The notes beneath the pieces were generated by a model. The model was given only the letters and a program-made list of their open reading frames with translations, made no database searches and was not told where the DNA came from. Below, piece after piece: positions 10,425 to 30,913 of a stretch of 41,161 nucleotides of DNA; the stretch's first letter is position 1, and the number at the start of each line of letters is the position of its first letter. Source of the stretch: a virus; UHGV virus genome UHGV-0045963; one strand, 5' to 3'. Position numbers and translations under genes: made by a program.

Positions 10425-10455
10425 AAACAAGGCCGCGAAAGCGGCCTGTGACATG

Positions 10456-10836
10456 TCACGCAACGCAATTATTACCGCGCCATGTAACATTTTTAATAAT
10501 CTTATCAGCACCAAACTCAACGTAAACAGAGCAACTGAAATGGAGTGTATAACCGCCATCAGTTGTTGCGTATGTGTTTGAATATATAGTATTACCAATT
10601 AGATTAGACGTAGTATTATACGTTGTGGTTTGTGGTACGTTATAACTACCAGAGCTTGAGTAAACATACACTCTGTTTCCATCTGGAGATGTAAGCTCTC
10701 CCTGAGGATACCCCCACTGCTGAACCATTGCGTCTATACTCTGCCCGCGCCACGTAAGCATATTTCTTTCAAACTGTGCAGCTGACTGGCATCCAACGAG
10801 AAGCATAAATCCAAAAATCAAAAATACTTTTCTCAT
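10456..10836 (-). CDS. lipoprotein, candidate superinfection-exclusion or surface moron
   Basis: MRKVFLIFGFMLLVGC lipobox; Thr/Ser/Asn/Tyr-rich mature part; AT-rich context between virion genes and ant. Start could be 10851 or 10872. Confidence 0.6.
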   Translation of the reverse strand: MRKVFLIFGFMLLVGCQSAAQFERNMLTWRGQSIDAMVQQWGYPQGELTSPDGNRVYVYSSSGSYNVPQTTTYNTTSNLIGNTIYSNTYATTDGGYTLHFSCSVYVEFGADKIIKNVTWRGNNCVA

Positions 10837-10921
10837 AATTACCCCTATCATGGAAAAACAGCACCAATCCACAAATTAACTAGTTATTTTATTATTCTTC
10901 CGAACAATACAATTCCGAATA

Positions 10922-11047
10922 CTACAAAGCCGAACCATGCCGCTGCACGCAACAGAGATTCCAATTGAAACCCATTTTTATCAAAATGTATGAATAGCAT
11001 AAAAACGCTGCACATATTAGTACAATAAAAGTTATTTGAACCATCAT
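10922..11047 (-). CDS. very small hydrophobic ORF (41 aa), frame uncertain
   Basis: Strong RBS AAAGGAG 5 nt before ATGATG; hydrophobic product MMVQITFIVLICAAFL...; the ORF-track alternative is 10884..11072 in another frame with no RBS. Confidence 0.25.
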   Translation of the reverse strand: MMVQITFIVLICAAFLCYSYILIKMGFNWNLCCVQRHGSAL

Positions 11048-11055
11048 ATCTCCTT

Positions 11056-13530
11056 TTATTGCGGAGTGACATCCTGTGGTCGCCACCAGTATGTCTGGTT
11101 AAACTCTTTCTTCGAACGTTGCTCCATTTTACGCAAATAGCCTGGTGAAAAATACTCCTGCATCTGGTTAAAGATCATGTGATCGAGAGCCGCCTTCAAG
11201 TACCAGAGATTCGCACCAGGCATCAAACCTTTCCCCAGCTTCACCAGATCACCACCAGTCTGCTCACTCTTCCCTTCCACAGCATTTAACGGTATGCCCT
11301 GAGCAATCTTCACTACGTCATCAACCAGACCAGCTACCGGGCCAAGCATCGACGCCAGCGCGCCGCTTCCGTACCTAGTGTGATCTGACAATAAAAAGTC
11401 ACCGTAAAGGCCAAGACCACCACCTTTCAGTAGAGCACCAAGCCAGAATTTTGCGGCATCTTCTCCTGTCATCTCTCGAGGATTACGACCAGACGCAAGG
11501 TCGTTAAGTTGCTGCGACAAAGCGCCAAGAATGGTCGTACTGGCAATAAACGTCGCAATATATGCCGCACGCCCACCAGCAGACGGCATACCCATAGCGC
11601 GTGACCAGTGACGCATAACAACCGAGATAGGGAACGATTTAAACAGGAAAACACTTCTCGTTAATTCACCTTTCCATGTTCCACGCTGAATACCAGAACC
11701 GGTTATCAGTTGCTCACGTGCTCCCGGTGTAATAACAGCCATATCAACTTCTTCAGTTACGGCACCGAGCAGTTTACGCATTGCCTCAAATTTCACGCGT
11801 TCAGGCTCACCAAGATGTTTAACTGCTGAATCAGGGATACGCATAATGCTTTCCGGTGTCAGCATCGTATTATTACCGTTCCCCCAGTCCTCCTGTTTCG
11901 CCAGCTTCCATACGCTCCAGTCTGTGTCAGTAATCCCTTTGCTTTTCAGGATACGAAAATCAGAGTCATCGAGGCTACGAAGGTCTGGTGTCCGTGACAC
12001 TACTTCTCCCAGGCTTCCCATCATGGTTACGCCATAGGCGCGCTTGTGCGCATCTGACCATGCTGTAAGCCCACTGGCACGCATTACCGCCGTTGCCGCC
12101 CAACGAGACACTGACGGCCCCATATTATCCATCGCCCAGCGGTTAACGCTGCCAAGTAGAGATTCCATCGCCAGACCAGCGCGGCGCGCCCGCGCAAGTT
12201 CTGTACGGTTCGTTGGGTCCATAGCTTCAAGCTGGTTGCGGAATAACTGGTTCATTGGAAGGTTGGTAACCTTCGCAGACAGATACATGGTTCCAAGATC
12301 AGAGAACGATGACAGCAACGCGGATCCGAGTCTGCTGGCAACCAGCCAGTTGCGGATATTGTCAGACCATCGCGCGATGTGCGGATTCGCTACAGGCTGT
12401 GTCTTTCCGGAAATAAAGTTGTACAGATTCTCTGTGTTGTTCGCCAGCCGCTCGACTTTACCGGTTTTACTCGGGTTAGCTGTTGCCGTTTCTGCCTTCA
12501 CCTGATCAAGAAGAGAGCGGAAAACATGATCGGGGTTTGGGCCATATGTTTCCACCAGTGCAATATCTTTACTGATACCTTCCAGGTGACCGACCATGAT
12601 TTCCCATAGAGAGCGATCGCCATAAAGTTGCTGATATTGCAGATAGGAATCTGCATCTTTGAAATGTATCTGTCGTGATGCATTACCACGGTTAGCACGT
12701 GCGCCGGAAATTCGCATTCCGGTATCAGTAAGCTTATTCAGCCCACCAGTAGCGATCGTGTTATAAGCCTCTCCAAGAAATGAAGACAACTCGGCATCGT
12801 TCATCAGTTGTCCATCGGCTCGGATATAATATTTGCGATCCAGCCTACCTATAACATCGCTAACCCACTTATCCTTTGATACTGCCCCAACCTTTTCCAT
12901 AGAATGATGTTGAGGGATCCCCCAGTTTTCGAGATAGCCAATGTCCCCACCAGCATCATTAAACCGGCGGCGCAGCAGCTCTGTAACTTCTCTCCACGCC
13001 TTAGCACCGTTTCTTGCTTTAGCATTGCCAGTAGTTTGCCCCCGCATTTCATATACCAGGTCACGTACGCCCGCTTCATCTTCAAACAGACCAAAAAAGC
13101 GAGGATCAACTGCTTCGAATGCCTCCTGCAATTGACTCAATGCATAATCACGGGTGGCTTTTGTTCTGGATTCAACAGAGAGGAAATTAGATTTACCGTC
13201 TGCATTAAAAGCTATAGTACGGTTAAGAGCGCCAAGTTTCCCATCAGCCCCTTGATAGCTATTGATAAATTTATCCAATCTCTGACGCGCGGCTATAGTG
13301 AGAGCCACACGACGTTTCTTTAATGCCGCTTCTCGCTGTAATTCTTCAGATGCCAATTGTGCTGCTCGATATAGCCGCTCTGATTCGGAAAGTTGTCGCC
13401 ACGACATAGGGTCATCACGAGCAATGGAGCGCATATTTCGATAAATGCGGTCTTCAATGTTCTGTATTTCTCGCGCCGTTAACATGCGCTGCGCCGCCTG
13501 CTGAACCGCTTGTATACATTCCTGTCTCAT
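11056..13530 (-). CDS. large virion internal/ejection protein (podovirus core protein)
   Basis: 824 aa; last large gene of the coupled virion operon before the accessory island; RBS GAGAGG. Confidence 0.65.
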   Translation of the reverse strand: MRQECIQAVQQAAQRMLTAREIQNIEDRIYRNMRSIARDDPMSWRQLSESERLYRAAQLASEELQREAALKKRRVALTIAARQRLDKFINSYQGADGKLGALNRTIAFNADGKSNFLSVESRTKATRDYALSQLQEAFEAVDPRFFGLFEDEAGVRDLVYEMRGQTTGNAKARNGAKAWREVTELLRRRFNDAGGDIGYLENWGIPQHHSMEKVGAVSKDKWVSDVIGRLDRKYYIRADGQLMNDAELSSFLGEAYNTIATGGLNKLTDTGMRISGARANRGNASRQIHFKDADSYLQYQQLYGDRSLWEIMVGHLEGISKDIALVETYGPNPDHVFRSLLDQVKAETATANPSKTGKVERLANNTENLYNFISGKTQPVANPHIARWSDNIRNWLVASRLGSALLSSFSDLGTMYLSAKVTNLPMNQLFRNQLEAMDPTNRTELARARRAGLAMESLLGSVNRWAMDNMGPSVSRWAATAVMRASGLTAWSDAHKRAYGVTMMGSLGEVVSRTPDLRSLDDSDFRILKSKGITDTDWSVWKLAKQEDWGNGNNTMLTPESIMRIPDSAVKHLGEPERVKFEAMRKLLGAVTEEVDMAVITPGAREQLITGSGIQRGTWKGELTRSVFLFKSFPISVVMRHWSRAMGMPSAGGRAAYIATFIASTTILGALSQQLNDLASGRNPREMTGEDAAKFWLGALLKGGGLGLYGDFLLSDHTRYGSGALASMLGPVAGLVDDVVKIAQGIPLNAVEGKSEQTGGDLVKLGKGLMPGANLWYLKAALDHMIFNQMQEYFSPGYLRKMEQRSKKEFNQTYWWRPQDVTPQ

Positions 13531-13535
13531 TTAAT

Positions 13536-15338
13536 TTAACCTCTCAAGAAACACGCCACAGCGACATCAAACAGGCTGGAATCCTGTATTGCCTGCTCAC
13601 TTTCCCTGTTCGCTTCATCCAGTGCTTCACGCGCACTGCGCGATTGTGGATTACCATCATCATCCAGCACGGTGATTATCATGTCAGGTGATTCAAGCAG
13701 CGAGTCTTCAGCTATGCGCAAATCAATATCTCCTGCCTGATCTGACATCATTTTTTGTTCTGCCTGTTGCAATATTTTATCAGGCTCAAAAGGAGCTACT
13801 TCGTCTGGCGTCCTGACCTCTGCTGTTTTATAGAATGAAACAGCCTGAGCATTAAGTTCACTTTCTGCCTGCTGTCTCCGAGCCAGTTCTGCTCGAGCTT
13901 CAAAAAACTGACCGCCAGGCTCATGCGGTGCCAACGCGTTACGAGAAAATTCCAGGCGTTCTTGTGCCTGCCGGATTCGTTGGTCAATATCGCGAAGTCT
14001 GGCCTGTTTATCTGATCGAGCACGAGATAAAGCCTTACCGCTACCGGCTGGATCTTCTGCAAGAATTTGTGCGCGCTGTTCAGTGAGATTTTCAATAATT
14101 CGTTGGCTATTAGCGATTTCAGACTGGTAAACCTGTCTATCGCCACGCGGCAAAAGCTGCGCGGCCTGTTCTTCAAGCAACCGATTTTCTATAGCGCGCG
14201 CCGTTACTCCATCATCTACAGATGACAGAGCCTCATTAACTGCCTGAGACAGCAGACTCTTGCGTCCAGGAATTTCACTGAAAGATGCAGACTCAACAAT
14301 GCTGGCAACGTCTACAGGTCTCCCCTGGCTAACATCAGACATGGCTTTTCGCAGAGCCTGAATGTGCGAATTACGCGAAAGCACGTTGATCGGCACGCCG
14401 GGAGCAATATCAATTTCAGCATGATGAGCGGCATTCGCCGCCAGTGCAGCATCGATATCAACTGGTGAAAAATTTGGTGCGCTTGTAGACTCGCCGCGAG
14501 AGTTAATAAATCTGCCGACACCACCAAACGCCACCCCAAGAACAGCATCAATAGCAATTGCCTGTCGATCCAACACATCATACTGGTTAGCCATTTCGCT
14601 ATAGCCACCATCACGAAGCGTTTTTGCAGTAAGCCCACGCTGTGCCATACCGAACGCAATATTTGTACCTGCGGCATAGGCAATATCTGGCGTTGCACGT
14701 ACTGCTGTTGCTGCGGCGCGTCGCACTGAACTTTCACCCGTCCGCGCAAGCTGAGCCGCCACACCTTCCGCCAGCGCACCACCAGCACGTAACCCGAGGC
14801 TCATAGGGATCAGTGTTCCGGCACCAGCAGTAATACCCTGCACTAATCCCGCTTCCTGCGCCGTCCTGAAATCAACACCCTGTGCTGTAAGCCGTTCAAA
14901 CTCAGAAAAACCCTGTAGAGAAGTTACCGCCGCAGCACCTCCGACCGGACCACCGAGCGTTGTACCGACAACAGCCTGCCCGCCCATATCGAACAACCCA
15001 TAAAGGACCTGCCCGGCGGTTCCGGTTGTCGCGGCATCAGGCGTCAGCCGCTTAACCTGCTGCTCTGCTAGTTTTCTCTGCTCAGCAATGTATGAAACTG
15101 AAGTGTCATTGATCGAGGTGTTTTCGTTAACAAACTGAGCAATCGGGGATACGATTTTATCCATCCCTGCCCATAGCAACTGATCTGGCTTTGCCACCAG
15201 CCCGGAGTACAAACCAGACAATGCCGCTCCTACAGCATTGTCGAAAAAACCAACATCGCTGTTAAAGCCAGCTGGATTTGATGCTGCTTCGTCAAGCTGC
15301 TGATTCTGGTTTACTGGATTAAGGCCAAAGTAACTCAT
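13536..15338 (-). CDS. virion internal/ejection protein
   Basis: 600 aa, Gly/Ala-rich N-terminal half; start overlaps the upstream stop (ATGA). Confidence 0.65.
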   Translation of the reverse strand: MSYFGLNPVNQNQQLDEAASNPAGFNSDVGFFDNAVGAALSGLYSGLVAKPDQLLWAGMDKIVSPIAQFVNENTSINDTSVSYIAEQRKLAEQQVKRLTPDAATTGTAGQVLYGLFDMGGQAVVGTTLGGPVGGAAAVTSLQGFSEFERLTAQGVDFRTAQEAGLVQGITAGAGTLIPMSLGLRAGGALAEGVAAQLARTGESSVRRAAATAVRATPDIAYAAGTNIAFGMAQRGLTAKTLRDGGYSEMANQYDVLDRQAIAIDAVLGVAFGGVGRFINSRGESTSAPNFSPVDIDAALAANAAHHAEIDIAPGVPINVLSRNSHIQALRKAMSDVSQGRPVDVASIVESASFSEIPGRKSLLSQAVNEALSSVDDGVTARAIENRLLEEQAAQLLPRGDRQVYQSEIANSQRIIENLTEQRAQILAEDPAGSGKALSRARSDKQARLRDIDQRIRQAQERLEFSRNALAPHEPGGQFFEARAELARRQQAESELNAQAVSFYKTAEVRTPDEVAPFEPDKILQQAEQKMMSDQAGDIDLRIAEDSLLESPDMIITVLDDDGNPQSRSAREALDEANRESEQAIQDSSLFDVAVACFLRG

Positions 15339-17848
15339 TGCGGAATATCTCCGGAGAATCTCTGACGCTTCTGTGTCAGATTAAGAACAACGGGAGAACC
15401 ATCATCTTTCAGCAGATAACCAGTACCAAGTTTAACCAGGTACTGACTATCGCCGTAACTTTGCAAACCATACTGACCAGGCGGTGTTTTTATCCCGGAG
15501 CCGACAACTTGTTCATTCCAAGCCTGATTAACCTGCTTATCGAATTGCTCTGCAGACATTCCCCACGGCAAAAGGACATTCCCCATTCCGTTATAGTCAT
15601 GCACGCCACCTGTAGCTACGTTAACAGCCTGTTTCCAGACATCATTGTCAATTTCGCCTGATACCACGCCTTTTTTCGCCATCACACCAGCGTAATAATC
15701 CTTTGCGATCTCGTATGCCATTGATGCGCCCTGAGCGTCACCAGCAAATGCATCCTTCACCATGTCAGAAAACTCAAGGCGAAGATCAGCATCTTTAGGC
15801 ATCGGAATACCTTTCGCATCATCAGTACCTTTACGAGCCGCCGCGCCAGCAAGAATTGTCTGCGCAGCGGTTTCAGGAGACACGGAAACATCCGGATTAA
15901 ACCAGTTTTTTTCTGCCAAAATACCACCAGGCTTATCCATCAGTATCCCGGCAACGGCAGCAGATGGAGCGTTGGCACTGATCTGCTGTAGTGCTGACAT
16001 ATACACCTGCCCACCACCAGTGCTCTGCCTGATGGTATCGAGATATGCTGCCTGTTGGGAAACTGGAGCATCACGAAAGAAAACACCGATCTGATTGGCC
16101 TCGTCTTTGGAAAAGAACGTCAGTGGAGTGCCATATGACTTAGCAAGGTCACTGACCTGAGCGGCACGCAAGGCAACGCTCTGTCCAAAGTTATCCTTAT
16201 TGCTCATGTCGATAGGCTTTGCCTGTCCGGAGGCAAGAGAGAACTGCACAGGATCCGACTGCCGCTGCTTTATCACCTGATTTGCAGCCGAAACAACGTT
16301 GTCATAAAGAGCTGCGCGTGCCGCATACCCCTCCCCTGTTTCACCAGTATCCGGGCGTAATTGCTCAACATATGCTGTAATGCTGCTTGTCGGCATGTTG
16401 CGGAAAGAGCCGATATACTGTCCGGCGATCTGCGTATTCTTAAACTCGGTATATCGCAGGTTTCCTTCTCTGACTCCATAAGCTGCAATAAAATCATCCT
16501 CACCAGGTGGGTTAGGAAATTCAACGCCACGCATATACGCAGCCGTCGCATCGCGAACCCGGCTGTCGAGCATCGTTTTATATTCAGCCTGCTGTTGTCT
16601 GGCTAGTGCATCAGTCTGTCGCAACACGCTGGCCTGATCTGATTCACTTAAAGCATCGAACCAGGCTACACCGGTATAACGTTTATTTTTTGTCGGTAGC
16701 TGAGAAAGCCCCAGCGCAGCACTAACACCTGCAGTTAACTGCTGATCACTGTATGGCTGGCTACCGTTTTCATGATGGATAATGGCTGCACAAAGCGCCT
16801 TCAGGGTATCAGGATTTGATGCATCGAGAGGCTCATCAGCAGAAACGCCAAGTTGTTCGCACACTGCTTTGATATACGACATAGTGTCATTTTTATCAGT
16901 AGGCGGTGCCCAGCGATTAATTATCTCGCTGACGGTATCAATACCCTGCCGCTGATACGACATCAGGTTCCGCCCTAATGCACGAATACCGTGTTCAGGG
17001 GTTTCGAATTTGGCAAAGCGACCATCATCACCAGTCTGCCCAACCCACGGATTAGTTTTGCTGTATTCAAGATTGCCGGGGTTATTGTTGCGTATACCGC
17101 GGGTACGATCGGAAGAGCCACTATCTGCTACAGCACGGCGAGATCCAGCAGCAGTATCGCTTAACTCGCCGTTTTGCTGTCTTACCTGAAGATAGTTTGC
17201 TCCAATAGCATTTTGAGCAGTTGCTTTTGCTGTTGCTTCTTTAAACTCGATTTTCTTGGCCTGGATTTGCTCGTCACTCCAGCCATGTGCAATGCCGTAA
17301 TCCTCAATTTGCTGGAAAGTTTGCTTATTAGCCAATACGTATGCGACGTTGTCGCCATACAATGCTGCGGCATTTTTACCATTGTTCAGCAGCGTAGCCT
17401 GAAACTGGCCTTCTTCGTAGGCATTTATTTGCCCTATCTCGTGCCGCCCTGCCTGCGTAGTGAACTGAATGCGCTGCTGCTGCGCCTGCTGCATGAAAGC
17501 ATTACGAGCCTGTTCATCCGGCAGCGACATAGCCAGTTGTTCGACCTGAGCATCAAACTGCTGCGTATACTCCTGACCTTTTCCAATAGCATTTTTCCCT
17601 TTCAGGTTAAGCAATCCTGTTTCAGGATTATTCAGCAGATCACTGCTTATCTGACTGAGGTTAAGAGATGCCTCCTGAGCCAGAGCGATATTGGCACGCT
17701 GTTTTGCCTGACCAAAAACATCAATTGCCTCTGTCCCTGCCCGAACAAAAGCATCACCAATACCTGGCTGAGAAAACGTCTGCAAGCCTGCTGACTGAAC
17801 TCCACGGCTCTGAACCTGACGGCCGGATACTGTTGGTACGACTGGCAT
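15335..17848 (-). CDS. virion internal/ejection protein
   Basis: Start set at the internal ATG with RBS GGAGG, which overlaps the upstream stop by 1 nt (TAATG); the longer track ORF (to 17923) would overlap the upstream gene by 76 nt. Confidence 0.65.
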   Translation of the reverse strand: MPVVPTVSGRQVQSRGVQSAGLQTFSQPGIGDAFVRAGTEAIDVFGQAKQRANIALAQEASLNLSQISSDLLNNPETGLLNLKGKNAIGKGQEYTQQFDAQVEQLAMSLPDEQARNAFMQQAQQQRIQFTTQAGRHEIGQINAYEEGQFQATLLNNGKNAAALYGDNVAYVLANKQTFQQIEDYGIAHGWSDEQIQAKKIEFKEATAKATAQNAIGANYLQVRQQNGELSDTAAGSRRAVADSGSSDRTRGIRNNNPGNLEYSKTNPWVGQTGDDGRFAKFETPEHGIRALGRNLMSYQRQGIDTVSEIINRWAPPTDKNDTMSYIKAVCEQLGVSADEPLDASNPDTLKALCAAIIHHENGSQPYSDQQLTAGVSAALGLSQLPTKNKRYTGVAWFDALSESDQASVLRQTDALARQQQAEYKTMLDSRVRDATAAYMRGVEFPNPPGEDDFIAAYGVREGNLRYTEFKNTQIAGQYIGSFRNMPTSSITAYVEQLRPDTGETGEGYAARAALYDNVVSAANQVIKQRQSDPVQFSLASGQAKPIDMSNKDNFGQSVALRAAQVSDLAKSYGTPLTFFSKDEANQIGVFFRDAPVSQQAAYLDTIRQSTGGGQVYMSALQQISANAPSAAVAGILMDKPGGILAEKNWFNPDVSVSPETAAQTILAGAAARKGTDDAKGIPMPKDADLRLEFSDMVKDAFAGDAQGASMAYEIAKDYYAGVMAKKGVVSGEIDNDVWKQAVNVATGGVHDYNGMGNVLLPWGMSAEQFDKQVNQAWNEQVVGSGIKTPPGQYGLQSYGDSQYLVKLGTGYLLKDDGSPVVLNLTQKRQRFSGDIPQ

Positions 17849-18393
17849 TATAATCCTCCGGGTAATCTGGTTCCTGCTGCTGCCCCGATTGGCGCAGGGG
17901 TGCTTTGAGTAAACGGACTCCACGTCCCACCAAACATCTGGTACGCACCGTATGCCTTCAGAGGCGCAGTGAGCAATGTTGTTGCTGCTCCCACATTCCC
18001 CTGTTTACGGGCTGAACTGGCTTCTGCTTTATAGTTGGCAGCCTGAACCTGATAACCGTAAGCCTCGCGTTGCGCGTTATTCACCGTCGTCAGCGAATCA
18101 AGAGCGCCAAACTGAGCAGTGTCACCAAATATATCCAGCGCGTTACCTGTAGATAAATCGGCGCCGGTCGCCCCCATTGTCGCCGCCTGTGTACCAAGCC
18201 GCTGTCGGGTCTCTCTGCGCCGTTGCTCAGCTTCAGCGTTACCCCTGTTTATTGCATCATTTGCCTGAGCTGTGGCTATATCTGCGTTCGCTTCTGCAAC
18301 CTTCGAGGCATACCTTACCTGTTGGTACTGGGTGTATGCCTGAATGCCACTCATGGCGAGCATTGCGCCACCAGCAATAACCGGATCGCACAT
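17848..18393 (-). CDS. small virion internal protein (T7 gp14-like position)
   Basis: 181 aa, Ala/Gln-rich; 1-nt stop/start overlaps with both neighbours. Confidence 0.55.
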   Translation of the reverse strand: MCDPVIAGGAMLAMSGIQAYTQYQQVRYASKVAEANADIATAQANDAINRGNAEAEQRRRETRQRLGTQAATMGATGADLSTGNALDIFGDTAQFGALDSLTTVNNAQREAYGYQVQAANYKAEASSARKQGNVGAATTLLTAPLKAYGAYQMFGGTWSPFTQSTPAPIGAAAGTRLPGGL

Positions 18394-22642: not shown

Positions 22643-22652
22643 CGATATCACC

Positions 22653-23090: not shown

Positions 23091-23141
23091 CTTCTTTCTC
23101 CATTAGTGGGTCTGTTACGACCCACAGGTTAATAACAGGCG

Positions 23142-24128
23142 TTACACCACGCGGGCTTCTGTTTCCAGAAGCGCATCAGTTTCACGGATTGGTACACCAC
23201 GGAATGAAGTCCACCACTCGCCTTCTGTCTCTTTTACGCTGATAGCCAGAGATGTTTTCTCCAGAGACTGCAGATCAAGAGCCTGGCCTACAGTGCGGTT
23301 CATGTAGAACACCGGGCGGCCCATGCCACGGTTTGGAATGCGATGTAGTGCTTTAACCATCAACTTCGCAATATTTGCGGCAGAGGATGGTTCTGAAAGA
23401 TTGCTGACATCGATGTTTGCAATGCGAACAACATAACGCCAGTCACGCAGAGCAAGTCCGTTGTCCCATTTGTAATGGGTACGGTAGCCTTCGTACTTGC
23501 CGCCATTAGCATCTTCCAGTGTCACCTGGCCTTTATCTTCCATCTGGATGCCAGCCTTCTGCCCTTTCGGGAAGATGCCATGCACGGTGTTTTCGCCCCA
23601 CACCACTAACCAGATTGAGGTGTTATCTGTACCCGTGCCACCAGCATCAATGATGTTCTGAGCATTACCCGCAGACAGGCTGGAATAGCGGGAGGACAGT
23701 CCCATAAACTGCTGAGGGTTAACGCTGGAATCACCATAAAACAGCGTCTGCGCCATCTGCTGATTCATCGCTTCAATAAATGCGCGGTCTTCAGACAGGC
23801 GGAATTCGGCGGTATTGCCGTTCAGATCAGCCAGTGACTTATCGACTTCCGCATAGGTTTCCAGCATGCCAACGGAATCGGTTACCTGCACTGTGGTTGA
23901 TTTGCTTGGCTGTACGCCATAGTTCAGCAAACGCCAGGTAGCTGAAGGTAAACCAGAACGAATGGTGGTTCGGTGTCCGGTAGGAAGGTTCCCTTCGACA
24001 AAAGGCATATCCTGAAGGATCGGGTTAGTTTGACCGAGAAGCTCGATAATCTTATCGACTTTCCCGTTTGGATCGACGCGCTTACCCCAGTCAGCCAGCG
24101 TCAGCGCAGTTAAGCCTTTAACAGCCAT
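23142..24128 (-). CDS. major capsid protein
   Basis: About 330 aa directly after the scaffold gene; followed by stem-loop GTGGGTC..GACCCAC; RBS AGAGAGGAA. Confidence 0.75.
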   Translation of the reverse strand: MAVKGLTALTLADWGKRVDPNGKVDKIIELLGQTNPILQDMPFVEGNLPTGHRTTIRSGLPSATWRLLNYGVQPSKSTTVQVTDSVGMLETYAEVDKSLADLNGNTAEFRLSEDRAFIEAMNQQMAQTLFYGDSSVNPQQFMGLSSRYSSLSAGNAQNIIDAGGTGTDNTSIWLVVWGENTVHGIFPKGQKAGIQMEDKGQVTLEDANGGKYEGYRTHYKWDNGLALRDWRYVVRIANIDVSNLSEPSSAANIAKLMVKALHRIPNRGMGRPVFYMNRTVGQALDLQSLEKTSLAISVKETEGEWWTSFRGVPIRETDALLETEARVV

Positions 24129-24142
24129 TGTCATTTCCTCTC

Positions 24143-24838
24143 TTATTTGCCATAGAGCACTTCGGCCGCACTACGCTGGCCTTCATTACCACCGGTGACC
24201 ATGCCATCTTCAGACATCGCCTTTCCGATTTTCACGAACGTTTTGACCAGATCAGGGTGATTACCCAGCCCGGTGGTGTTCAGATATTCTTTGAGTTCAG
24301 GTGTCCCGAACTGGTCAAGCGCACGCTGTGCGGCGCTAAGGTTAGAAATCAACTTGTCGCCACCGATTTCTTTGTCGGCTTTTACATCCGCAGCCCACTG
24401 CTCGGTTGTTTTCTGCCAGGCTTCTGCCTGGCGCTGCTGAACACCTGCCAGAATCTTCGGATAAGCATCAACCAGCTTTTGCGCTTGCTCGTTGGTCAGG
24501 TTTAGTTCTCGCGCCACCGGCTCGAATTCCTTCAACGCTTCTGTATCCAGCTCTACGCCTTCGGCAGCCTGAAACTCGTACTTTTCAGGCGCACCCTCTG
24601 GTTTATCGCCGTCCTTTTTTTCATCCTGCTTATCGTTTTCAGGCTTTTTGTCATCAGCAGGTTTATCGCCATCAGCAACAGGTTGTGGCTTATCACCTTC
24701 CTGTTGTGATGGATCACCAACTGGAGCAGGGTTATCACCTGCAGGCGCTGACGGTTCTGACGCAGCCGGAGCTGCTCCACCATCGACTGGTTGCTCATTG
24801 CAAATACGGCGATACAGCAAACGCTCAAATAAATTCAT
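24143..24838 (-). CDS. scaffolding protein
   Basis: Acidic, Pro/Asp/Lys-rich N-terminal half and helical C-terminal half; strong RBS AGGAG; between portal and capsid. Confidence 0.7.
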   Translation of the reverse strand: MNLFERLLYRRICNEQPVDGGAAPAASEPSAPAGDNPAPVGDPSQQEGDKPQPVADGDKPADDKKPENDKQDEKKDGDKPEGAPEKYEFQAAEGVELDTEALKEFEPVARELNLTNEQAQKLVDAYPKILAGVQQRQAEAWQKTTEQWAADVKADKEIGGDKLISNLSAAQRALDQFGTPELKEYLNTTGLGNHPDLVKTFVKIGKAMSEDGMVTGGNEGQRSAAEVLYGK

Positions 24839-24840
24839 GA

Positions 24841-25137
24841 TCACTCCTGTTCACTGGCCTCTTTGGCCATCTTCAAATACTGTTCAGGGCAATGCGCCAT
24901 AACGCGCTGAAACAGTTCCAGCGCCAGATTGCGTTGCCCCTCATTAAATGCCATTGCCATAGCGTCCATCGGTGAGATAGCGGAAAACACACGGCCTTTC
25001 TCCAGCACCGACCAGACAACGCGACGCCCCTGTTCACTGCTCATGACAAAGCGAATGTCATCAATTTCACGCTGCGCCATGTCACGTTGCTTACGGGCGT
25101 TTTCTTCTTTCAGTTGATCGTCTTCGTAATCTGTCAT
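24841..25137 (-). CDS. small acidic protein between portal and scaffold
   Basis: 98 aa; ATGA overlap with the portal stop. Confidence 0.5.
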   Translation of the reverse strand: MTDYEDDQLKEENARKQRDMAQREIDDIRFVMSSEQGRRVVWSVLEKGRVFSAISPMDAMAMAFNEGQRNLALELFQRVMAHCPEQYLKMAKEASEQE

Positions 25138-26813
25138 TGTGATTGCCCACCCTGACCACTAACTGCATTCGCCATAGCTGACAAAACACTCGGATCCGAA
25201 GTTTTAGCTTCACTTAGCGTCTTGGCACCCTGTGCCGCCGCCATCCCCATCGCCATCATTTGTTGCTGCTGTTGTTGCTGTGCCCGTTGCTGGCGAGCCT
25301 GCTCAACCTGTTCCTGCGGAACAATGACGGTTGGAGACACTCCGGACATATCAGCGAATGCATCGATCGCCTGATCAACGTTGAGTTTGTCGAGAGCTTC
25401 TGGTTTCGCTTGCGCAAGTTGACCAATGAAGTTAACCGTGGACGCCAGACTGGACAGGCCGATAGACTTCTGCGCCTGAGCCATGACGGAAATGTATTCG
25501 ACCTTCAGGGGCATGCCTTCCATCGCGTCAGGCGGTGGCGGCAGCATGTTTTTACGCACCATCATCGAGAAAGAGCGATCAATGAGAGGATTAAGACATT
25601 CGTCGTTCAGGCGCTCCAGAACCGGCCCCAACATCAGAAGTTTTTCTTCTTTCATTTCGATCACCGCTTCCACAGGCATCGAGCGGGTATTGATGTTCTG
25701 CAACATCATGAACAGATCGACAAAGTAGGCGCTGTTAATGATTTGACGAGTGTCCTGAATGTCTGCCACCAAATCTGCTGTACTGGGGTTAACCAGATAA
25801 GCAGGCCTGAAACCATCCTGACCAGTAATCTGATCGATATACGTGATGTCGCCAGGAAGAAGGGAGGCGCGCTGATTCTTGAGGGAAGTCGGAGCAACCA
25901 TCGGCGGATTGGTGGCTTTATCAATCAACTGCGACTTGCGCTTCTGGAGAAGCTGCAATGCCTTAACAGGTCCAAGCGCCAGCATACCCGGGCATGATGA
26001 TCCATAAACATCTTCGCCGTTAACTTCCCAGCGCGGAGCCATAATTGGAAACTCATCGAATCCGGACTCACGCAACAACTTGTCGTTATCGCCACCAACC
26101 TCGTAATAAACCGATTTGAATGGCTTGTTCTTGCTATCCAGCTTCGATGTATCGCGGTCAATGTTCGGGTAAACCGAATGCATCACTTCAATCCACTTCT
26201 CGTAGGTGCCGCTTTCCCACATGCTTTTTACGGATTCGCTGACGTTATTTAGCCCGAACTCCTGAACAAGCTGACGAACAGTCATAGAGAACTTGCGAAA
26301 ACAGGTGTCCACACTGCCACGAGGTGAGTTAGCCAGGTAGTAACTGCCTATCGGGAATGGCATTGTGCGAATGATGTCCTCGTCATCCTCCAGCACCGCC
26401 ATTGCACCAGTGCTGTATGTGCCGAGGCTTCCGTATAACTGCGGAAGAGACTGGTAGAGATTCGACTTATTGAACATATCGTTCATGCGGTTCTGCACCG
26501 CCTCGAGCCACAACTTAACAGGACCATAATCCATCATTTCAGGATCTGGCGTAGCCAGGCGAAACCACGGACGCGCAGGGCTTGTGATGCCTGACATCAT
26601 GCCGCTGGCGAGAGTGCGCGCCGCCATAGTCCCGGTCGAATCAATAATGCGTGTATTGCGTCGATCGTTACGGTTGACTTCAGAAGTCAGAAAGCGGGAA
26701 CCACGCGGGTTGATGTAATCACTCAACTCGCGCCAGTGCGGCTCGAACGACTGACGCTCGCTTTCAAGTTGTGCGAACTGTTTGTTCAATCGCTCTTTAG
26801 TTGTTTCCGCCAT
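25134..26813 (-). CDS. portal protein
   Basis: 559 aa, Gln-rich C-terminal tail; RBS GGAG; position between terminase and scaffold. Confidence 0.8.
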   Translation of the reverse strand: MAETTKERLNKQFAQLESERQSFEPHWRELSDYINPRGSRFLTSEVNRNDRRNTRIIDSTGTMAARTLASGMMSGITSPARPWFRLATPDPEMMDYGPVKLWLEAVQNRMNDMFNKSNLYQSLPQLYGSLGTYSTGAMAVLEDDEDIIRTMPFPIGSYYLANSPRGSVDTCFRKFSMTVRQLVQEFGLNNVSESVKSMWESGTYEKWIEVMHSVYPNIDRDTSKLDSKNKPFKSVYYEVGGDNDKLLRESGFDEFPIMAPRWEVNGEDVYGSSCPGMLALGPVKALQLLQKRKSQLIDKATNPPMVAPTSLKNQRASLLPGDITYIDQITGQDGFRPAYLVNPSTADLVADIQDTRQIINSAYFVDLFMMLQNINTRSMPVEAVIEMKEEKLLMLGPVLERLNDECLNPLIDRSFSMMVRKNMLPPPPDAMEGMPLKVEYISVMAQAQKSIGLSSLASTVNFIGQLAQAKPEALDKLNVDQAIDAFADMSGVSPTVIVPQEQVEQARQQRAQQQQQQQMMAMGMAAAQGAKTLSEAKTSDPSVLSAMANAVSGQGGQSQ

Positions 26814-26827
26814 TTCAATGACTCCGG

Positions 26828-27034
26828 TTACTGACCAAGCAGCGTTTTACCGCTGGTATTAGCGGTTGATGTGTCGCCCTGAGAACCGGTAAGCAGCGTA
26901 GAACTACGACCAGCAGCAGCGCGACGGCGACGTGTTTCTTCGTCGCGGGCATCAACAACGGCGGCATCCTGCTCCTGTGGTGCTGCCTGAACTTCTGGTG
27001 TTGCAGGCACTGATGGTGAGCTACCCATGCACAT
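26828..27034 (-). CDS. small protein upstream of portal
   Basis: 68 aa, Ala/Thr/Arg-rich; RBS GGAG 9 nt upstream. Confidence 0.4.
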   Translation of the reverse strand: MCMGSSPSVPATPEVQAAPQEQDAAVVDARDEETRRRRAAAGRSSTLLTGSQGDTSTANTSGKTLLGQ

Positions 27035-27123
27035 ATCAATGACTCCGTACGCAATTAAATTATTACCAATTTAACCACATATGATTTATTTATCGTAGAA
27101 GGTTGACATTTAACGCGTTAATT

Positions 27124-27140
27124 ATTACCTTTCAGGTAAC
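27124..27140. promoter_or_regulatory. operator-like palindrome ATTACCTTTCAGGTAAC
   Basis: Same family; preceded by TTGACA (27103..27108); in the intergenic region between the portal operon and the plus-strand tRNA unit. Confidence 0.55.
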
Positions 27141-27461
27141 CAAAGGGCTCATTCTGGTTACTAACCTGACTGGCTTGTCGTTAAATTAAACAGGTGGAGT
27201 GAGCTTTTATTTTGAGCAGTACGGCGTATGGCACATGCGCCGATAGCGGTCTGGATACGTTTAAGGGGCACCCTCCCTTGCTCGGGCAAACGAACCAGGT
27301 AGCCGGAATGTGCAAGTCGAGCGGTTTTATTCCGCGCACGGGGATTCACCATCCCGGCGATTCGGTGTGACGCCTCGGAAGAGACGAGGGTACAACGATG
27401 AGAGCATTTATGGAGCCGCGACAAAGTGTGGCGCCTTAACAGGCTAAGTGCTCTCAGCGTT

Positions 27462-27538
27462 GTGGCATTAGCTCAGTTGGACAGAGCAACCGCCTTCTAA
27501 GCGGTTGGTCGCAGGTTCGAATCCTGCATGCCACGCCA
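27462..27538 (+). tRNA. tRNA-Arg (anticodon UCU, decodes AGA)
   Basis: Hand-folded cloverleaf: 7-bp acceptor stem GTGGCAT/ATGCCAC, D-stem GCTC/GAGC, anticodon stem ACCGC/GCGGT with loop CTTCTAA, T-arm GCAGG-TTCGAAT-CCTGC, discriminator G and encoded CCA. Confidence 0.9.
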
Positions 27539-27581
27539 GAATCACGCCTAAGGACCGTGATGCCAGAAGTTCCAGGTGCTT

Positions 27582-27623
27582 GGCGGGGATAGTTTCCCTT
27601 GAAGGACTATCACCGCCCTTTTT
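27582..27623 (+). terminator. intrinsic terminator downstream of the tRNA
   Basis: 12-bp stem GGCGGGGATAGT / ACTATCACCGCC (one mismatch) followed by CTTTTT. Confidence 0.65.
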
Positions 27624-27701
27624 ACAGCAGGACGCCATTGCGATGACTTCATGCTGTAAACCCGTACAGCCACGGAAGGCATAACTCATTGCTTCCAGTT
27701 C

Positions 27702-27725
27702 GCCCGGTTCGCCGGGCATTTTTTT
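27702..27725 (+). terminator. terminator or attenuator hairpin immediately upstream of the 27737 RBS
   Basis: Stem GCCCGG / CCGGGC with loop TTCG followed by T7, then RBS AAGGTG and ATG. Confidence 0.55.
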
Positions 27726-27736
27726 AAGGTGAGATT

Positions 27737-28111
27737 ATGAACGACCAGCAAATCGAAAAAGAAATCGTTGAGAAAGGCAAAACCGCTCCGCGTGTAACAC
27801 CCGAGAAAATTGAAGGCCTCATTTGCAGTGAGCATTTTTTCACTGCTGCGCAGGGTGACCACCAGGCTAAAGAAGATGACCTTATTTATAATCCGGAGCC
27901 TTATGTCGAAGCCACCCCTGATGCTCTGCACCTTCTCACTTTCTGCGTATTGGTACTGAAGAATGGCTTCACCGTTACCGGAGAGAGTGCCTGTGCAAGC
28001 CCGGAAAACTTTGATGCAGAAATTGGTCGGAAGATTGCCCGGCAGAATGCTGTAAACAAAATCTGGATGCTCGAAGGTTACTTGCTGAAGCAGAAGTTAA
28101 GCGAGCAATAA
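27737..28111 (+). CDS. hypothetical 124-aa protein (moron-type gene next to the tRNA)
   Basis: RBS AAGGTG; opposite strand to the surrounding virion genes; no family recognised. Confidence 0.6.
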   Translation: MNDQQIEKEIVEKGKTAPRVTPEKIEGLICSEHFFTAAQGDHQAKEDDLIYNPEPYVEATPDALHLLTFCVLVLKNGFTVTGESACASPENFDAEIGRKIARQNAVNKIWMLEGYLLKQKLSEQ

Positions 28112-28132
28112 CACCGTGACATGTCACAAACA

Positions 28133-28160
28133 GCCAGCCGATGAGCTGGCTTTGTTTTAT
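28133..28160. terminator. terminator in the convergent region between 27737..28111 and the terminase large subunit
   Basis: Stem GCCAGC / GCTGGC with loop CGATGA followed by TTTGTTTTAT. Confidence 0.55.
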
Positions 28161-28201
28161 CCTCACCAGAGGATATCAGCAGTATTATCCCCACCAGCGG
28201 A

Positions 28202-29677
28202 TTAAGCATAAGGGTCATAATCCGTTATGGCCCTTCCCTGCTGGCTTTGCTGTCCAGGTATATTTATGCGTTTCGAGACCGGGAAAGCAAACGTCAGCAG
28301 TAGCGCATCGCCTTTACCAGGAGAACGCCCAAGTCGCTCTTTGATATCTTCCTTCGGTTCGATAACGATTTTACCGTCCACTCGAACTTTGTACTCTGCC
28401 GCCGACAGGTCGTCTGCTGTTTCCTGGTCATCCAGCATGCCGCCCAGCCTCAGCCATGTCTTGCATGAATTGAACATCTCCCCACGCTTGTTGAGCATCT
28501 GCGGGTCAGTAGACGCGCCACCGAACGGAACAAGTTGCCATGTACGACCCCAGCCGTCACCGATTGACTTCAAACCGGTTCCGTAACCGAAGTCGATGAA
28601 CACCGCGTCAGCCTGATACTGGTCTTCAAAGTCAGCGATACGCTTCGCCATAATCAGATCGTCGGTAGTCTTGTTGCCAGTCCACAGCACCTTACTGTGT
28701 AGCCCCTGCCGCAGGTATATCACAGCGTCATCAACGCCGGAGTATGCCGGGTCAACGCCGATTATCACCGGAGCATGTGCAACCTGCGCAGCGGTTACCA
28801 CCCGTTTCATTGCCTCGTCAGTAAGACCGGTAGGGATAAACTGCAATTCAGATGCATCAGGGAATATGCCACGCACACGGATTTTAACGAAGTCGCTGTC
28901 TTCCCCGTAGTCATCAACCCATTTCTGCAACTGCTGTTTGTTAGTGCCTTCCACCGTCCGGCTGTCAATCTGCGCAGTTTTCCAGCGGTGTTTATATTTG
29001 CGGAAACATTCGCGAAAACGCCCGGTGTTACGTGTAGGGTTTCCGAACGCCACCCAGATAATCTCAGTGTCTTCGTCCGTAAGCGCACCCTCGGCAACTT
29101 CCCACACCAGATCCGCAATGTTCGACGCTTCATCAAACACCACGATGATGCGTTTGCGCTCGTTGTGTAGTCCGGCGAATGCCTCGGTGTTGTGCTCAGA
29201 CCAGGGTATTGCGTCAGCCCGCCACCGCTTGTCGTGCCCTAGGTCATTGCTGTACATCGCGGTAGCGGTACAGGTAAACCAGTCTTTCGTGATAGCAAGG
29301 TTCGACCACTTGATAATTTCCGGCCAGGTCTTCGTTCGTAGCTGGTTGTCGGTGTTGGCGGTCACCACGACCTTACAATCCTCGCAAGTGGACATGCCCC
29401 AGTTGATCAGCATTGAGATGAATGCGGATTTACCAATACCGTGACCAGAAGCGCGTGCCAGCATAAGCGGCTGATAGCGCGTCTCTGGATTCTGCAGGTG
29501 ATCACGTATCTCTCGGAACGCATCAGCCTGCCACTGACGTGGGCCGGTGGCATGTGCCAGTTCAGTCCCCTCTTCCCCCCATGGGAACGCATAGAGGGCA
29601 TAGCCAAGCGGATCGTGAGTGAACCCTGCAATATCCTCGATTAACTGCTCTTCAGGAGATAACGCTGTATCTGTCAC
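28202..29677 (-). CDS. terminase large subunit
   Basis: Walker A-like ASGHGIGKS, Walker B-like IIVVFDEAS, C-terminal nuclease-type acidic motifs; GTG start overlapping the small-subunit stop (GTGA). Confidence 0.9.
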   Translation of the reverse strand: MTDTALSPEEQLIEDIAGFTHDPLGYALYAFPWGEEGTELAHATGPRQWQADAFREIRDHLQNPETRYQPLMLARASGHGIGKSAFISMLINWGMSTCEDCKVVVTANTDNQLRTKTWPEIIKWSNLAITKDWFTCTATAMYSNDLGHDKRWRADAIPWSEHNTEAFAGLHNERKRIIVVFDEASNIADLVWEVAEGALTDEDTEIIWVAFGNPTRNTGRFRECFRKYKHRWKTAQIDSRTVEGTNKQQLQKWVDDYGEDSDFVKIRVRGIFPDASELQFIPTGLTDEAMKRVVTAAQVAHAPVIIGVDPAYSGVDDAVIYLRQGLHSKVLWTGNKTTDDLIMAKRIADFEDQYQADAVFIDFGYGTGLKSIGDGWGRTWQLVPFGGASTDPQMLNKRGEMFNSCKTWLRLGGMLDDQETADDLSAAEYKVRVDGKIVIEPKEDIKERLGRSPGKGDALLLTFAFPVSKRINIPGQQSQQGRAITDYDPYA

Positions 29678-30270
29678 TGATTGCCATCCTGACGTTCTTT
29701 CAGTCTCTTCCTGGCTGCCGCTATGCGATCAGCAATTGTCACATTCACATTAACATCCAGGCGTTCTTTGAATGCGTTGACGTCGACGTGCTTACCAATC
29801 AGTTCGAGGTTCTTCACCTTGTCAGGCCATTTAATTTTTTTGAGGATTGTCTCTATCGAATCCTCGTTCATGTTCATGATGGTCGATGACAGATCAAAGC
29901 CACTAAGCGTAGTGCGCCAGATTTTCGGCCACTCGCGGATTGGCTTAAGGCTCCCATCGTCGTTGAGGATGTCGATCACGTCCATCTGGTCGATCTCCAC
30001 CAGGCGCATGAGAACGTAATCAGCACTGACGCGCATTCGTTTGTTGCGCTCTTCCATCAGCTCGGCAATCCGTTTTTGAATGCGTTCATCGCGCATCATG
30101 AGACTGGCTTTAACTGCCGCTGTATTTGGGGAGAATCCTGCGTTAATCGCAGCCTGAGTCTGGTTTTCAGGCGTTTGGATGTATGACTGGCAATAAGCCT
30201 CCTGCATTGCTGTTAGTGGCTTAAATTGCGTTGATTTGCGTTTATAGGTTTTAGGTTCAGCAGGCATCAT
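29674..30270 (-). CDS. terminase small subunit
   Basis: About 198 aa from the first in-frame ATG (track start is TTG); basic helical N-terminal region; coupled to the large subunit. Confidence 0.65.
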   Translation of the reverse strand: MMPAEPKTYKRKSTQFKPLTAMQEAYCQSYIQTPENQTQAAINAGFSPNTAAVKASLMMRDERIQKRIAELMEERNKRMRVSADYVLMRLVEIDQMDVIDILNDDGSLKPIREWPKIWRTTLSGFDLSSTIMNMNEDSIETILKKIKWPDKVKNLELIGKHVDVNAFKERLDVNVNVTIADRIAAARKRLKERQDGNQ

Positions 30271-30344
30271 AACCACCGTGGTAATAGTTACCGTTGTGGT
30301 AATAGTACCATGCAAAATAAAGCCGCCATAGTTGGCGGCAGTAT

Positions 30345-30557
30345 TCAAAGTCCATCAAATTCATCGTAAAAACTCTCGTCAAGATACCCTTCCCATTTAC
30401 CGCGAATGAAAATTACATCCTCGCCGCAAGGGTGCTGACTGTCGATAACTATATCCCTCCTGGCGCAACCATACTTATGCATGAGAAATTTAACCTCTTT
30501 CGGAAAATTTGCTGAGTTATCTCTCATATCTTCAAGGTCGTAGCGTATTTTTGGCAT
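30345..30557 (-). CDS. hypothetical small protein
   Basis: 70 aa from the internal ATG; the track start is GTG inside the 12-bp palindrome. Confidence 0.4.
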   Translation of the reverse strand: MPKIRYDLEDMRDNSANFPKEVKFLMHKYGCARRDIVIDSQHPCGEDVIFIRGKWEGYLDESFYDEFDGL

Positions 30558-30574
30558 AACACCTTCGTGACATG

Positions 30575-30913
30575 TCACACTATTAATTTCGTTTCATGCC
30601 AGCCTTTAGTCACCCAGCATTGCGAGTCACCATTACACGGGCATGAATTAACGGGAACTCTCTCGCCGCACTTACCGCAAAGTTTTCTGCTGATCGATTT
30701 TATACGCCCGCGCACACGTGCATCATCCTGGCGGATCAGCAGCGCGATGTACTCGGCCATTTCATAGGGATCGTGACCAGGGCGCCGGGCGGCGCAGTTC
30801 CGCGCCAGCATTTCCTGCTCCTGCTTATCCAGCACCAGTTCAATTTTGCGCTCACCGGCGGCGGACTGCCGAGCGCGCTGCGCGGCTTTGCGCTCTGCTG
30901 CTGATTTAGCCAT
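30575..30913 (-). CDS. small basic protein with C-terminal Cys-rich zinc-ribbon-like motif
   Basis: N-terminal MAKSAAERKAAQRARQ; C-terminal CGKCGERVPVNSCPCNGDSQC; RBS AAGGTG. Confidence 0.5.
   Translation of the reverse strand: MAKSAAERKAAQRARQSAAGERKIELVLDKQEQEMLARNCAARRPGHDPYEMAEYIALLIRQDDARVRGRIKSISRKLCGKCGERVPVNSCPCNGDSQCWVTKGWHETKLIV

Follow-up and report, generated by a model that had tools for sequence, protein, structure and literature searches.

A 12-bp palindrome at transcription-unit ends of an epsilon15/phiV10-like prophage is linked to a widespread family of uncharacterised phage proteins

The host nucleoid protein MatP acts on matS, a palindrome of 13 base pairs (bp) of the form GTGAC[AG]N[TC]GTCAC with the E. 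coli consensus GTGACATTGTCAC (PMC3603311, PMC8669397), and Bobay et al. found not one true matS in ~500 prophages in 2013 (PMC3603311). A second host protein, SlmA of the TetR family, binds the palindrome GTGAGTACTCAC (PMC3116907). In the virus genome UHGV-0045963, a stretch of 41,161 nucleotides (nt) which was analysed at full length and is called the window here, three copies of a 12-bp palindrome, GTGACATGTCAC, are found that resemble both sites. The window represents an E. coli prophage of the epsilon15/phiV10 type (Uetakevirus), and its first 2 kb are 100% identical to E. coli MS 57-2, beside yfgG-yfgH-yfgI. The phage 12-mer equals the matS consensus minus one central base, its outer 5 + 5 bases being those of matS. 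The SlmA site is likewise a 12-bp palindrome and has the same outer 4 + 4 bases, but its central four bases are GTAC and not CATG: positions 5 and 8 are invariably C and G in the phage and G and C, the opposite base pair, in the SlmA site.

The finding is real, non-random and conserved, and it is linked to an uncharacterised, widespread family of phage proteins, represented in the window by a protein of 112 amino acids (aa) encoded at 30575..30913 on the minus strand. Judged from the sequences, GTGACATGTCAC is probably the operator of this protein. The phage pair differs from MatP/matS in several respects. The spacing between the half-sites is 2 bp instead of 3 (all three sites of the window have a 2-bp centre, and a single 13-mer was seen, in Vibrio phage K303), the phage protein has no significant sequence relation to MatP (hhalign E 0.3), and in place of the four-helix bundle and the C-terminal coiled coil of MatP it has a zinc ribbon. 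Further, the pair is phage-encoded and gene-linked and occurs also in Pseudomonas prophages; its sites are spaced at about 1 per 13 kb compared to 1 per 35 kb for matS in Ter, and they are not confined to Ter, as the prophage lies by yfgG-yfgH-yfgI whereas matS in the host samples was only Ter-proximal. SlmA, for its part, is a host protein of the TetR family. The literature searched contained no paper with the 12-mer, nothing on matS-like sites in phages beyond Bobay et al. 2013 and no late regulator that combines a ribbon-helix-helix (RHH) fold with a zinc ribbon. The regulator-operator pair appears to be new. Two things about the operator are unusual: it stands at unit boundaries and where its own gene ends, and it is similar to matS.

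The palindrome and the gene linked to it

An exact search located GTGACATGTCAC at 10448..10459 (copy C, the first along the window), 28116..28127 (copy B, the second) and 30567..30578 (copy A, the third) and nowhere else in the window, as had been noticed in the first-pass annotation, which was made from the letters alone. Its view that three identical 12-mers are not expected by chance held as well, since none of 100 dinucleotide-preserving shuffles of the window contained even one copy. With up to two mismatches allowed, a single extra site appeared at 25074, which is probably a chance match. A 14-mer, CGTGACATGTCACA, is common to all three copies, with copy C carrying it on the minus strand.

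The 112-aa protein, whose gene ends within copy A, is a homologue of epsilon15 gp49, phiV10 gp55 and N15 gp46. Homologues down to 29% identity carry a site of the general form GTGAC-NN-GTCAC at or near the end of their own gene, and this holds for N15-like and P2-like phages, for ZF40 and for phages of Pantoea, Vibrio, Pseudoalteromonas and Pseudomonas. The stop codon of the gene lies within GTGACTGGTCAC in N15, Klebsiella 48ST307 and the Pseudomonas prophage L214, within GTGACGCGTCAC in a P2-like phage of Yersinia, within GTGACCTGTCAC in Pantoea AH07, within GTGACAGGTCAC in a Pseudoalteromonas prophage and within GTGACGGGTAAC, which has one mismatch, in L220, a prophage of a second Pseudomonas lineage. 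In the Pectobacterium myovirus ZF40, GTGACATGTCAC itself starts 3 nt after the gene stop; in the metagenomic member L212, GTGACAGGTCAC lies on the start codon of the gene; and Vibrio K303 and Salinivibrio L211 carry their sites (GTGACACGTCAC / GTGACGCGTCAC) 138–226 nt downstream of it. Altogether 34 such sites are present in 16 genomes or loci with a homologue, compared to 0.47 expected, which is a ~70-fold enrichment. Other spacings are nearly absent (two 11-mers in one lineage and one 13-mer), so that the centre is 2 bp long in 34 of 37 sites. Lambda, which is without a homologue, has no GTGAC-NN-GTCAC site at all; its two GTGAC-N-GTCAC 11-mers turned out to be coincidences of Val-Thr-Val-Thr coding.

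That the 12-mer might be a motif common across the host chromosome had been named as the outcome that would speak against it. In 100 kb of sampled host chromosome, however, neither the 12-mer nor any GTGAC-NN-GTCAC site was found, and one true matS was. This matS, GTGACAACGTCAC, lies at 45019..45031 of the Ter-proximal host sample L223 (MS 57-2 chromosome 2,045,019), inside the yebS open reading frame (ORF) at 44354..45637, and gave a sanity check for the motif scan. For the reading of the palindrome as an operator the linkage to the gene is the decisive evidence. Among the candidates that the first-pass annotation had offered, a regulator-binding site is hence the best supported, being tied to the 3' end of the gene of a predicted DNA-binding protein and enriched in the genomes that carry it.

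Sites were also found away from the gene end. N15 has them at 28.5, 33.2 and 39.3 kb, the first preceding the antirepressor operon, the second within repA/primase and the third at the gene stop, and all three positions are kept in 48ST307 despite diverged flanks; the site in repA/primase is located roughly 0.6–0.7 kb from the gene start in both. ZF40 has further sites inside cII and gp08, and three Vibrio-type phages have one 23–55 nt upstream of the start of the small terminase gene, with only the ribosome-binding site in between. The centre of the site varies between and within genomes (AT, TG, GC, AC, AG, CT) and the half-sites are fixed, which therefore fits a dimeric protein and argues against pairing between RNAs. 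Since the centres are often asymmetric, it is unlikely that a symmetric dimer would read them.

Some further occurrences of the motif are recorded here as observations in their own right. A Salmonella prophage (L217/L218, 14923..14957) encodes a 35%-identical member of the family and carries GTGACACGTCAC and GTGACGTGTCAC only 11 nt apart (23 bp centre to centre); the two are intergenic, ~1 kb upstream of the holin genes, and none stands at the stop of the family gene. The exact palindrome was also seen inside the 3' part of cII-like genes in several other phages (L018, L027, L034, L053, L116 and L026, and L203 at 7622), where it encodes a conserved '(R/C)-D-M-S-(H/Q)' at the same position as the ZF40 site; the constraint may be on the protein or on the DNA. 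Among the listed matches of the 14-mer in IMG/VR there were likewise coding coincidences, such as 'MRDMSQ' and 'VTCHSC' in Q proteins and 'RDMS' in cII-like proteins. In Vibrio-type phages with HNH and Terminase_4 proteins, the element ATTTTTAYRCG(A/T)GACAAATAAGGANCTTTTTTT precedes the palindrome before the small terminase gene by ~4–27 nt (L206 35830..35941; L211 12915..13025; L215 16016..16055) and may be part of a cos region or of a late promoter. Finally, five IMG/VR sequences (L107, L069, L021, L040 and L050) have iteron-like arrays of GTGACA/GTCACG half-sites around a full palindrome, and the GTGAC half-site may thus be used by further DNA-binding systems of phages.

Transcription units, conservation and variable cargo at the three copies

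The late genes of the prophage are on the minus strand. A search for epsilon15-type repressor operators of the form TTACC-N5-GGTAA revealed 14 copies in the window compared to 0.7 expected (7343, 8464, 8557, 9602, 27125, 30270, 30288, 34090, 34152, 36091, 36524, 36572, 37283 and 37345). They directly precede the small terminase gene (30270 and 30288), the portal operon (27125) and the tailspike gene (7343), as is annotated likewise in the epsilon15 record, and therefore the prophage repressor appears to hold each late unit directly and not via a single late-gene switch. Because operators stand before the terminase, portal and tailspike genes, the palindromes come to lie at unit ends: there are three consecutive leftward units, early-right, terminase and structural, and each of them ends at a palindrome next to an intrinsic terminator.

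Copy A stands at the end of the early-right operon, where it contains the TGA stop of the 112-aa gene (phrog_536) and lies 9 nt upstream of the ATG of a 70-aa ORF at 30345..30557 (-; phrog_1541). This ORF is variable cargo between the palindrome and the terminator of the early-right unit (30322..30339, -), which follows copy A at a distance of 227 nt (30339..30322) and is itself located upstream of the small terminase gene and the operators at 30270 and 30288. Copy B lies 4 nt past the stop of a convergent accessory gene at 27737..28111 (+), variable cargo of the Sf6 gp66 / N4 gp49 family (PF13876) whose 3' end abuts the palindrome, and another 4 nt further on is the bidirectional terminator 28132..28151 (+) which ends the terminase operon with the large terminase gene. 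Copy C, with which the structural (late) operon closes, is found between an ORF for a 77-aa secreted peptide (10191..10424, +) and the last gene of the operon, variable cargo coding for a predicted lipoprotein of 138 aa (10456..10872, -; phrog_3716), whose TGA stop it holds; the terminator 10430..10447 (-) abuts copy C without a gap and is shared with the convergent 77-aa gene. These surroundings had been described correctly before, including the minus-strand TGA inside copies C and A. The extended flank reported for copies A and B is indeed shared, but the common sequence, ATAACACC, is offset by 3 nt between the two and plays a different role in each: in copy B it contains the TAA stop, and in copy A it is the reverse complement of a Shine-Dalgarno sequence and an ATG.

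Several known elements were considered for the palindrome and rejected. None of the 14 repressor operators coincides with it. Its flanks give, on inspection, only a CTGT-N8-ACGC-type half match to a LexA box, and the spacing is wrong for a CRP box (TGTGA-N4-TCACA, by inspection). GTGACA agrees with the promoter -35 element TTGACA at five of six positions, but a suitable -10 element (TAAATT, by eye) is present only in the epsilon15 type.

Related phages were searched for the 12-mer as the first-pass annotation had suggested, and it was found at the corresponding junctions. phiV10, epsilon15, SPN1S and Tyrion have it at the same three places and nowhere else, which makes five Uetakeviruses including the window. 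The third copy of Tyrion spans the end of the record (L209 41755..41760), and that of phiV10, which runs across the record ends (L001 39099..39104 + 1..6), reads GTGACATGTTAC; this one mismatch could be genuine or could stem from an error where the assembly ends. At copies B and C the 12 bases are 100% identical, whereas the ungapped flanks of 30 nt on either side are only 33–60% identical. The terminator hairpins adjoining the palindromes vary among the relatives with compensatory changes but the palindrome is invariant; therefore, the constraint on the palindrome is sequence-specific and not structural. In IMG/VR, 80 loci were picked by the 112-aa protein alone, and 77 of them have the exact 12-mer within 6 nt of the stop codon (copy A). 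Copy B, with one mismatch allowed, is present in 56 of 76 loci and vanishes wherever the DNA after the large terminase gene is replaced by other cargo; since it is absent from ~26% of the relatives, copy B is dispensable. The ~10 kb early region upstream is free of the exact 12-mer in the IMG/VR loci, except for the outlier locus L176.

Each copy is flanked on one side by variable cargo, and in all three cases the change from conserved to variable DNA falls directly beside the palindrome. At least five types of sequence follow copy A across the relatives: nothing in phiV10, the 70-aa ORF in the window, which is without a counterpart in phiV10 and epsilon15, and in others LexA-box cassettes that encode UmuD-like or other small proteins. 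Beyond copy B, at least six different 3' ends of reverse-oriented genes were seen, and upstream of copy C at least eight different cargo 3' ends in IMG/VR; a number of cargo genes that are unrelated to each other end on the TGA of the palindrome. As a description, the module-exchange junction of the first-pass annotation is thus accurate, but it is less likely to be the purpose of the sites: no recombinase is associated with them, and copy B is lost in about a quarter of the relatives. The palindromes look like exchange junctions because they are the only strictly conserved islands in hypervariable regions, and a functional island that stays constant amid variable DNA is the simpler explanation of this appearance.

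The cassettes after copy A deserve a separate remark. In eight relatives (L174, L175, L004, L201, L005, L022, L114 and L120) a -35 element and a perfect LexA box (CTGT-N8-ACAG) stand 6–21 nt past copy A, followed by a gene for a UmuD-like protein, a 106-aa ORF or a small 'MGSKNPNC...' ORF. The junction at copy A is an SOS-controlled accessory slot in these relatives.

Other features of the window were noted on the way. Rfam matches to isrK (8608..8684, +) and to C4 antisense RNA (8709..8794, +) lie just upstream of the ORF 8834..9529, and together with the operators at 8464 and 8557 the region 8608..8794 resembles the immI-type antisense-RNA control region of P1/P7, which governs an antirepressor in those phages. 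A putative tRNA-Arg gene (anticodon TCT; 27462..27538, +) precedes the Sf6-gp66-like gene, in an orientation opposite to that of the late operon, and overlaps the ORF 27468..27719 (-), a full-length match to phrog_4647 (E 2e-53). The ORF of the small terminase (29674..30348, -; its first part at 30313..30348) starts inside the terminator hairpin 30322..30339, as does the gene annotated in phiV10; translation probably begins at the ATG near 30313, just downstream of the terminator, as in the epsilon15 annotation.

The 112-aa protein and its proposed mode of action

No Pfam, NCBIfam, PADLOC or BFVD match was obtained for the 112-aa protein, and its family is labelled 'hypothetical' in every named database entry seen. 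A protein search gave 775 sequence clusters; the best 120 of them, which were listed, all have more than ~78% identity to the window protein and are from Enterobacterales. More distant members come from Yersinia, Vibrio, Salinivibrio, Pseudoalteromonas and Pseudomonas, and tblastn also matched records of Aeromonas phages. An AlphaFold2 model of the monomer, calculated from an alignment of 54 representatives down to 25% identity, has a mean pLDDT of 92 and contains helices at residues 5–18, 30–42, 52–74 and 100–108 and a zinc ribbon. The nearest structural matches of its N-terminal half, which are weak, are RHH proteins. The model thus suggests an N-terminal basic helix (A-x-R-K-x-x-Q-R-x-R) followed by a strand-helix-helix unit of the RHH type, and the C-terminal half, with a long helix and the zinc ribbon, is tentatively and faintly DksA/TraR-like. 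R8 and R13 of the basic helix as well as C79, C82 and C99 are invariant or nearly so in the alignment; of the four-cysteine pattern CxxC-x17-CxxC of the DksA/TraR zinc ribbon, the phage family thus keeps the first CxxC pair, and the fourth zinc ligand is not fixed. The presumed strand residues that would face the DNA vary. Invariant R8 and R13 next to a variable strand fit basic helices that read the half-sites and a ribbon that lies over the unconstrained centre.

With the RHH repressors Arc, Mnt, CopG, MetJ and ParD/TacA the phage protein has in common its small size, the predicted strand-helix-helix core and a short palindromic target centred on the dyad, as would suit a dimer with its paired beta-strands in the major groove, and the GAC/GTC core recalls the MetJ box AGACGTCT. 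Unlike these, the putative operators of the phage lie at 3' ends of genes or inside genes and not at the protein's own promoter, the protein has in addition a conserved N-terminal basic helix and a C-terminal zinc ribbon, and no RHH family of Pfam assigns it. With F-plasmid TraR and YbiI of the DksA/TraR group it shares the modelled topology, with a long helix, the zinc ribbon C-x2-C-G-x2-(I/L)-P-E...F-x-G...C and a short C-terminal helix. Its CxxCG..(I/L)PE...F.G...C pattern aligns with that of both proteins, a profile search against PDB sequences found TraR and YbiI at E 0.044–0.063, and hhalign gave a probability of 63% for TraR, but none of the 54 members hit PF01258 in Pfam. One conceivable but improbable variant would be a TraR-like factor, tethered to the DNA, which blocks the secondary channel of a polymerase as it reaches the site; such an insertion is doubtful because the helix that aligns with TraR is buried in the RHH unit in the model.

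How could the protein act? A dimer would sit on the dyad of the palindrome, with its invariant basic helices reading the invariant GTGAC half-sites and its variable beta-ribbon lying over the unconstrained central 2 bp. As the last product of the early-right operon, it would find three sites that mark the 3' ends of the three leftward units, and the bound protein may act on RNA polymerase that passes between the stop codon and the intrinsic terminator. We tentatively propose that it would be a boundary or roadblock limiting read-through between units and into or out of accessory genes, although this role is somewhat less probable than not. Because sites are found inside repA, cII and gp08, before the ribosome-binding site of the small terminase gene and in the 3' untranslated regions (UTRs) of the window, the effect would probably be on elongation and not on initiation at promoters. 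Operators within transcribed paths and far from promoters are known from the roadblocks formed by LacI at O2, by PurR in purB and by CodY or CcpA at intragenic sites. Compared to these, the phage sites are single 12-bp sites of a phage-encoded factor, and the pairing with terminators is peculiar to Uetakeviruses.

Several observations count against this proposal. The protein is assigned to the site because the two co-occur and are adjacent. Autoregulators do not usually have their operator where their own gene ends, and a roadblock directly upstream of a good terminator, as at copies A and C, looks redundant; the order of stop codon, site and terminator would also fit a loading site for antitermination. 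Adjacency to a terminator was seen for 8 of the 34 sites, exclusively in Uetakeviruses, and fails as a general rule outside them, so that the boundary role may not generalise. Copy B can be lost, a P2-like member (L210) is without a site within 10 kb, and the lineage L215/L216 has 11-mers instead.

The likeness to matS leads to a different and rather improbable role for the same pair, that of a phage-borne analogue of MatP/matS, in which a DNA organiser on 12-mers, orthogonal to the MatP of the host, would loop or insulate the phage genome. If so, a loop between copies A and B would enclose the terminase operon and one between copies B and C the structural operon; alternatively, the organiser could interfere with host SMC-type machinery (MukBEF, Wadjet-like defence) or with the control of cell division.

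Competing explanations and significance

The main alternative to a roadblock is antitermination. In lambda, the gene of the regulator Q is the last of the early operon, and the site qut is located immediately downstream, before a terminator and the first late genes. The order of gene, site, terminator and late genes at copy A mirrors that of Q, qut, tR' and the late genes, in many phages the early operon closes with the family gene, and gene and site travel together across mosaic phages as Q and qut do. By analogy with Q/qut or RfaH/ops, the palindrome could load the protein onto RNA polymerase and make it resist the following terminator, so that early transcripts would extend into the terminase genes and late ones beyond the structural operon, in the direction of the tailspike and lysis genes. 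Copies A and C are indeed followed by a terminator after 0–227 nt, the N15 site at 28550 by one after ~110 nt towards the ant operon and the site of the Yersinia phage possibly, as judged by eye, by one after ~60 nt, and the C-terminal half of the protein resembles TraR and YbiI, which bind RNA polymerase. Nevertheless, we consider antitermination unlikely. It would be unneeded, as each late unit has its own repressor-controlled start, and at copy B the palindrome is downstream of the terminator in the late direction, while antitermination in the other direction would have the terminase genes transcribed in antisense. A Q-type antiterminator is already present in N15 and AH07, and the helix aligned with the one that TraR inserts into the channel is, in the model, helix B of the RHH unit and is not free. 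Moreover, the phage protein is unlike any Q, with neither the window protein nor any of the 54 members hitting the Q families PF03589, PF06530 and PF06323 in Pfam, no conserved promoter or pause element stands beside the site, and there are extra sites elsewhere, some of them inside genes.

The remaining explanations are weaker. Breakpoints that abut it at all three places, different cargo genes that end on its own TGA, the flank GGTGTTAT common to copies A and B, which hints at exchange between sites, and the RecE/RecT-like proteins encoded by the phage would all suit a dedicated recombination or module-exchange site, used by a site-specific activity or as a homology linker of 12–14 bases plus a terminator for RecE/RecT. 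This is quite unlikely, however: breakpoints are expected beside any conserved functional island, the palindrome bounds the cargo on one side only, the sites of N15-like phages and ZF40 lie inside conserved genes (repA, cII) and mark no mosaic boundary, no recombinase is linked to the motif and the linked 112-aa protein has no catalytic domain, and selection for evolvability leaves unexplained why 12 bases are fixed across phages whose linked proteins are 29–45% identical. It is very doubtful that the element works as RNA, be it as a hairpin (GUGA-CAUG-UCAC) or as a self-complementary 3' UTR seed that serves mRNA stability, processing or pairing of transcripts. The three copies of the window do lie in 3' UTRs between stop codon and terminator hairpin, a position typical for seeds of small RNAs derived from 3' UTRs, the variable centre could form a loop, and the copy on the repA strand of N15 is complementary to RNA from the other two copies; but the stem would have only 4 bp and is invariant with zero compensatory change among phages with linked proteins down to 29% identity, unlike the adjacent terminators, the centres vary inside a single genome (K303, L211), so that the RNAs would no longer be complementary to each other, a search of Rfam gave no match at the palindrome sites, adjacency to a terminator is not general, and the tie to one protein family would be left unexplained. 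That last objection applies as well to binding by a host nucleoid protein, MatP or SlmA, which would tie phage DNA into chromosome organisation or division control. The bases shared with matS and with the SlmA site speak for it, as do the perfect 13-bp matS that K303 also carries and the presence of MatP in most hosts of the family (Enterobacterales, Vibrio, Aeromonas). Yet the spacing is 2 and not 3 in nearly all sites, the base pairs at positions 5 and 8 are the opposite of those in the SlmA site, and true matS is avoided by prophages (PMC3603311). The prophage is next to yfgG-yfgI, which lie outside Ter on the map of K-12. Since the gene-site pair persists in Pseudomonas prophages and Pseudomonas, to our knowledge, has no MatP, a host factor is highly improbable. 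Least of all can a pac- or cos-related packaging signal recognised by terminase be expected, and this candidate of the first-pass annotation is not supported. Copies A and B bracket the terminase genes, three Vibrio-type cos/HNH phages have a copy 23–55 nt upstream of the small terminase gene, and the records of phiV10 and Tyrion are opened in the middle of copy A. The same gene-site pair, however, is present in the cos phage N15, whose cohesive ends are at the record termini and far from the three sites, the positions of which are kept in 48ST307; in the P2-like phage, ZF40 and AH07 the sites bear no relation to terminase genes; headful packaging would have no use for three identical pac sites at distances of 2.4 and 20 kb; and record starts are a convention of annotation, those of epsilon15 and SPN1S being elsewhere.

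Read as an operator of the 112-aa protein, the palindrome would give a widespread and so far unannotated family a precise candidate DNA target. It also provides a simple marker for operon ends and for insertion points of accessory genes ('morons') in epsilon15/phiV10-like prophages, whose conversion genes in E. coli O157 and Salmonella include those that modify the O antigen. That phages avoiding true matS keep a motif one central base away from it raises the question of orthogonality to, or cross-talk with, MatP and SlmA. Should the factor affect elongating polymerase where one unit meets the next, it would add an extra control point to the early-to-late switch in several groups of temperate phages.

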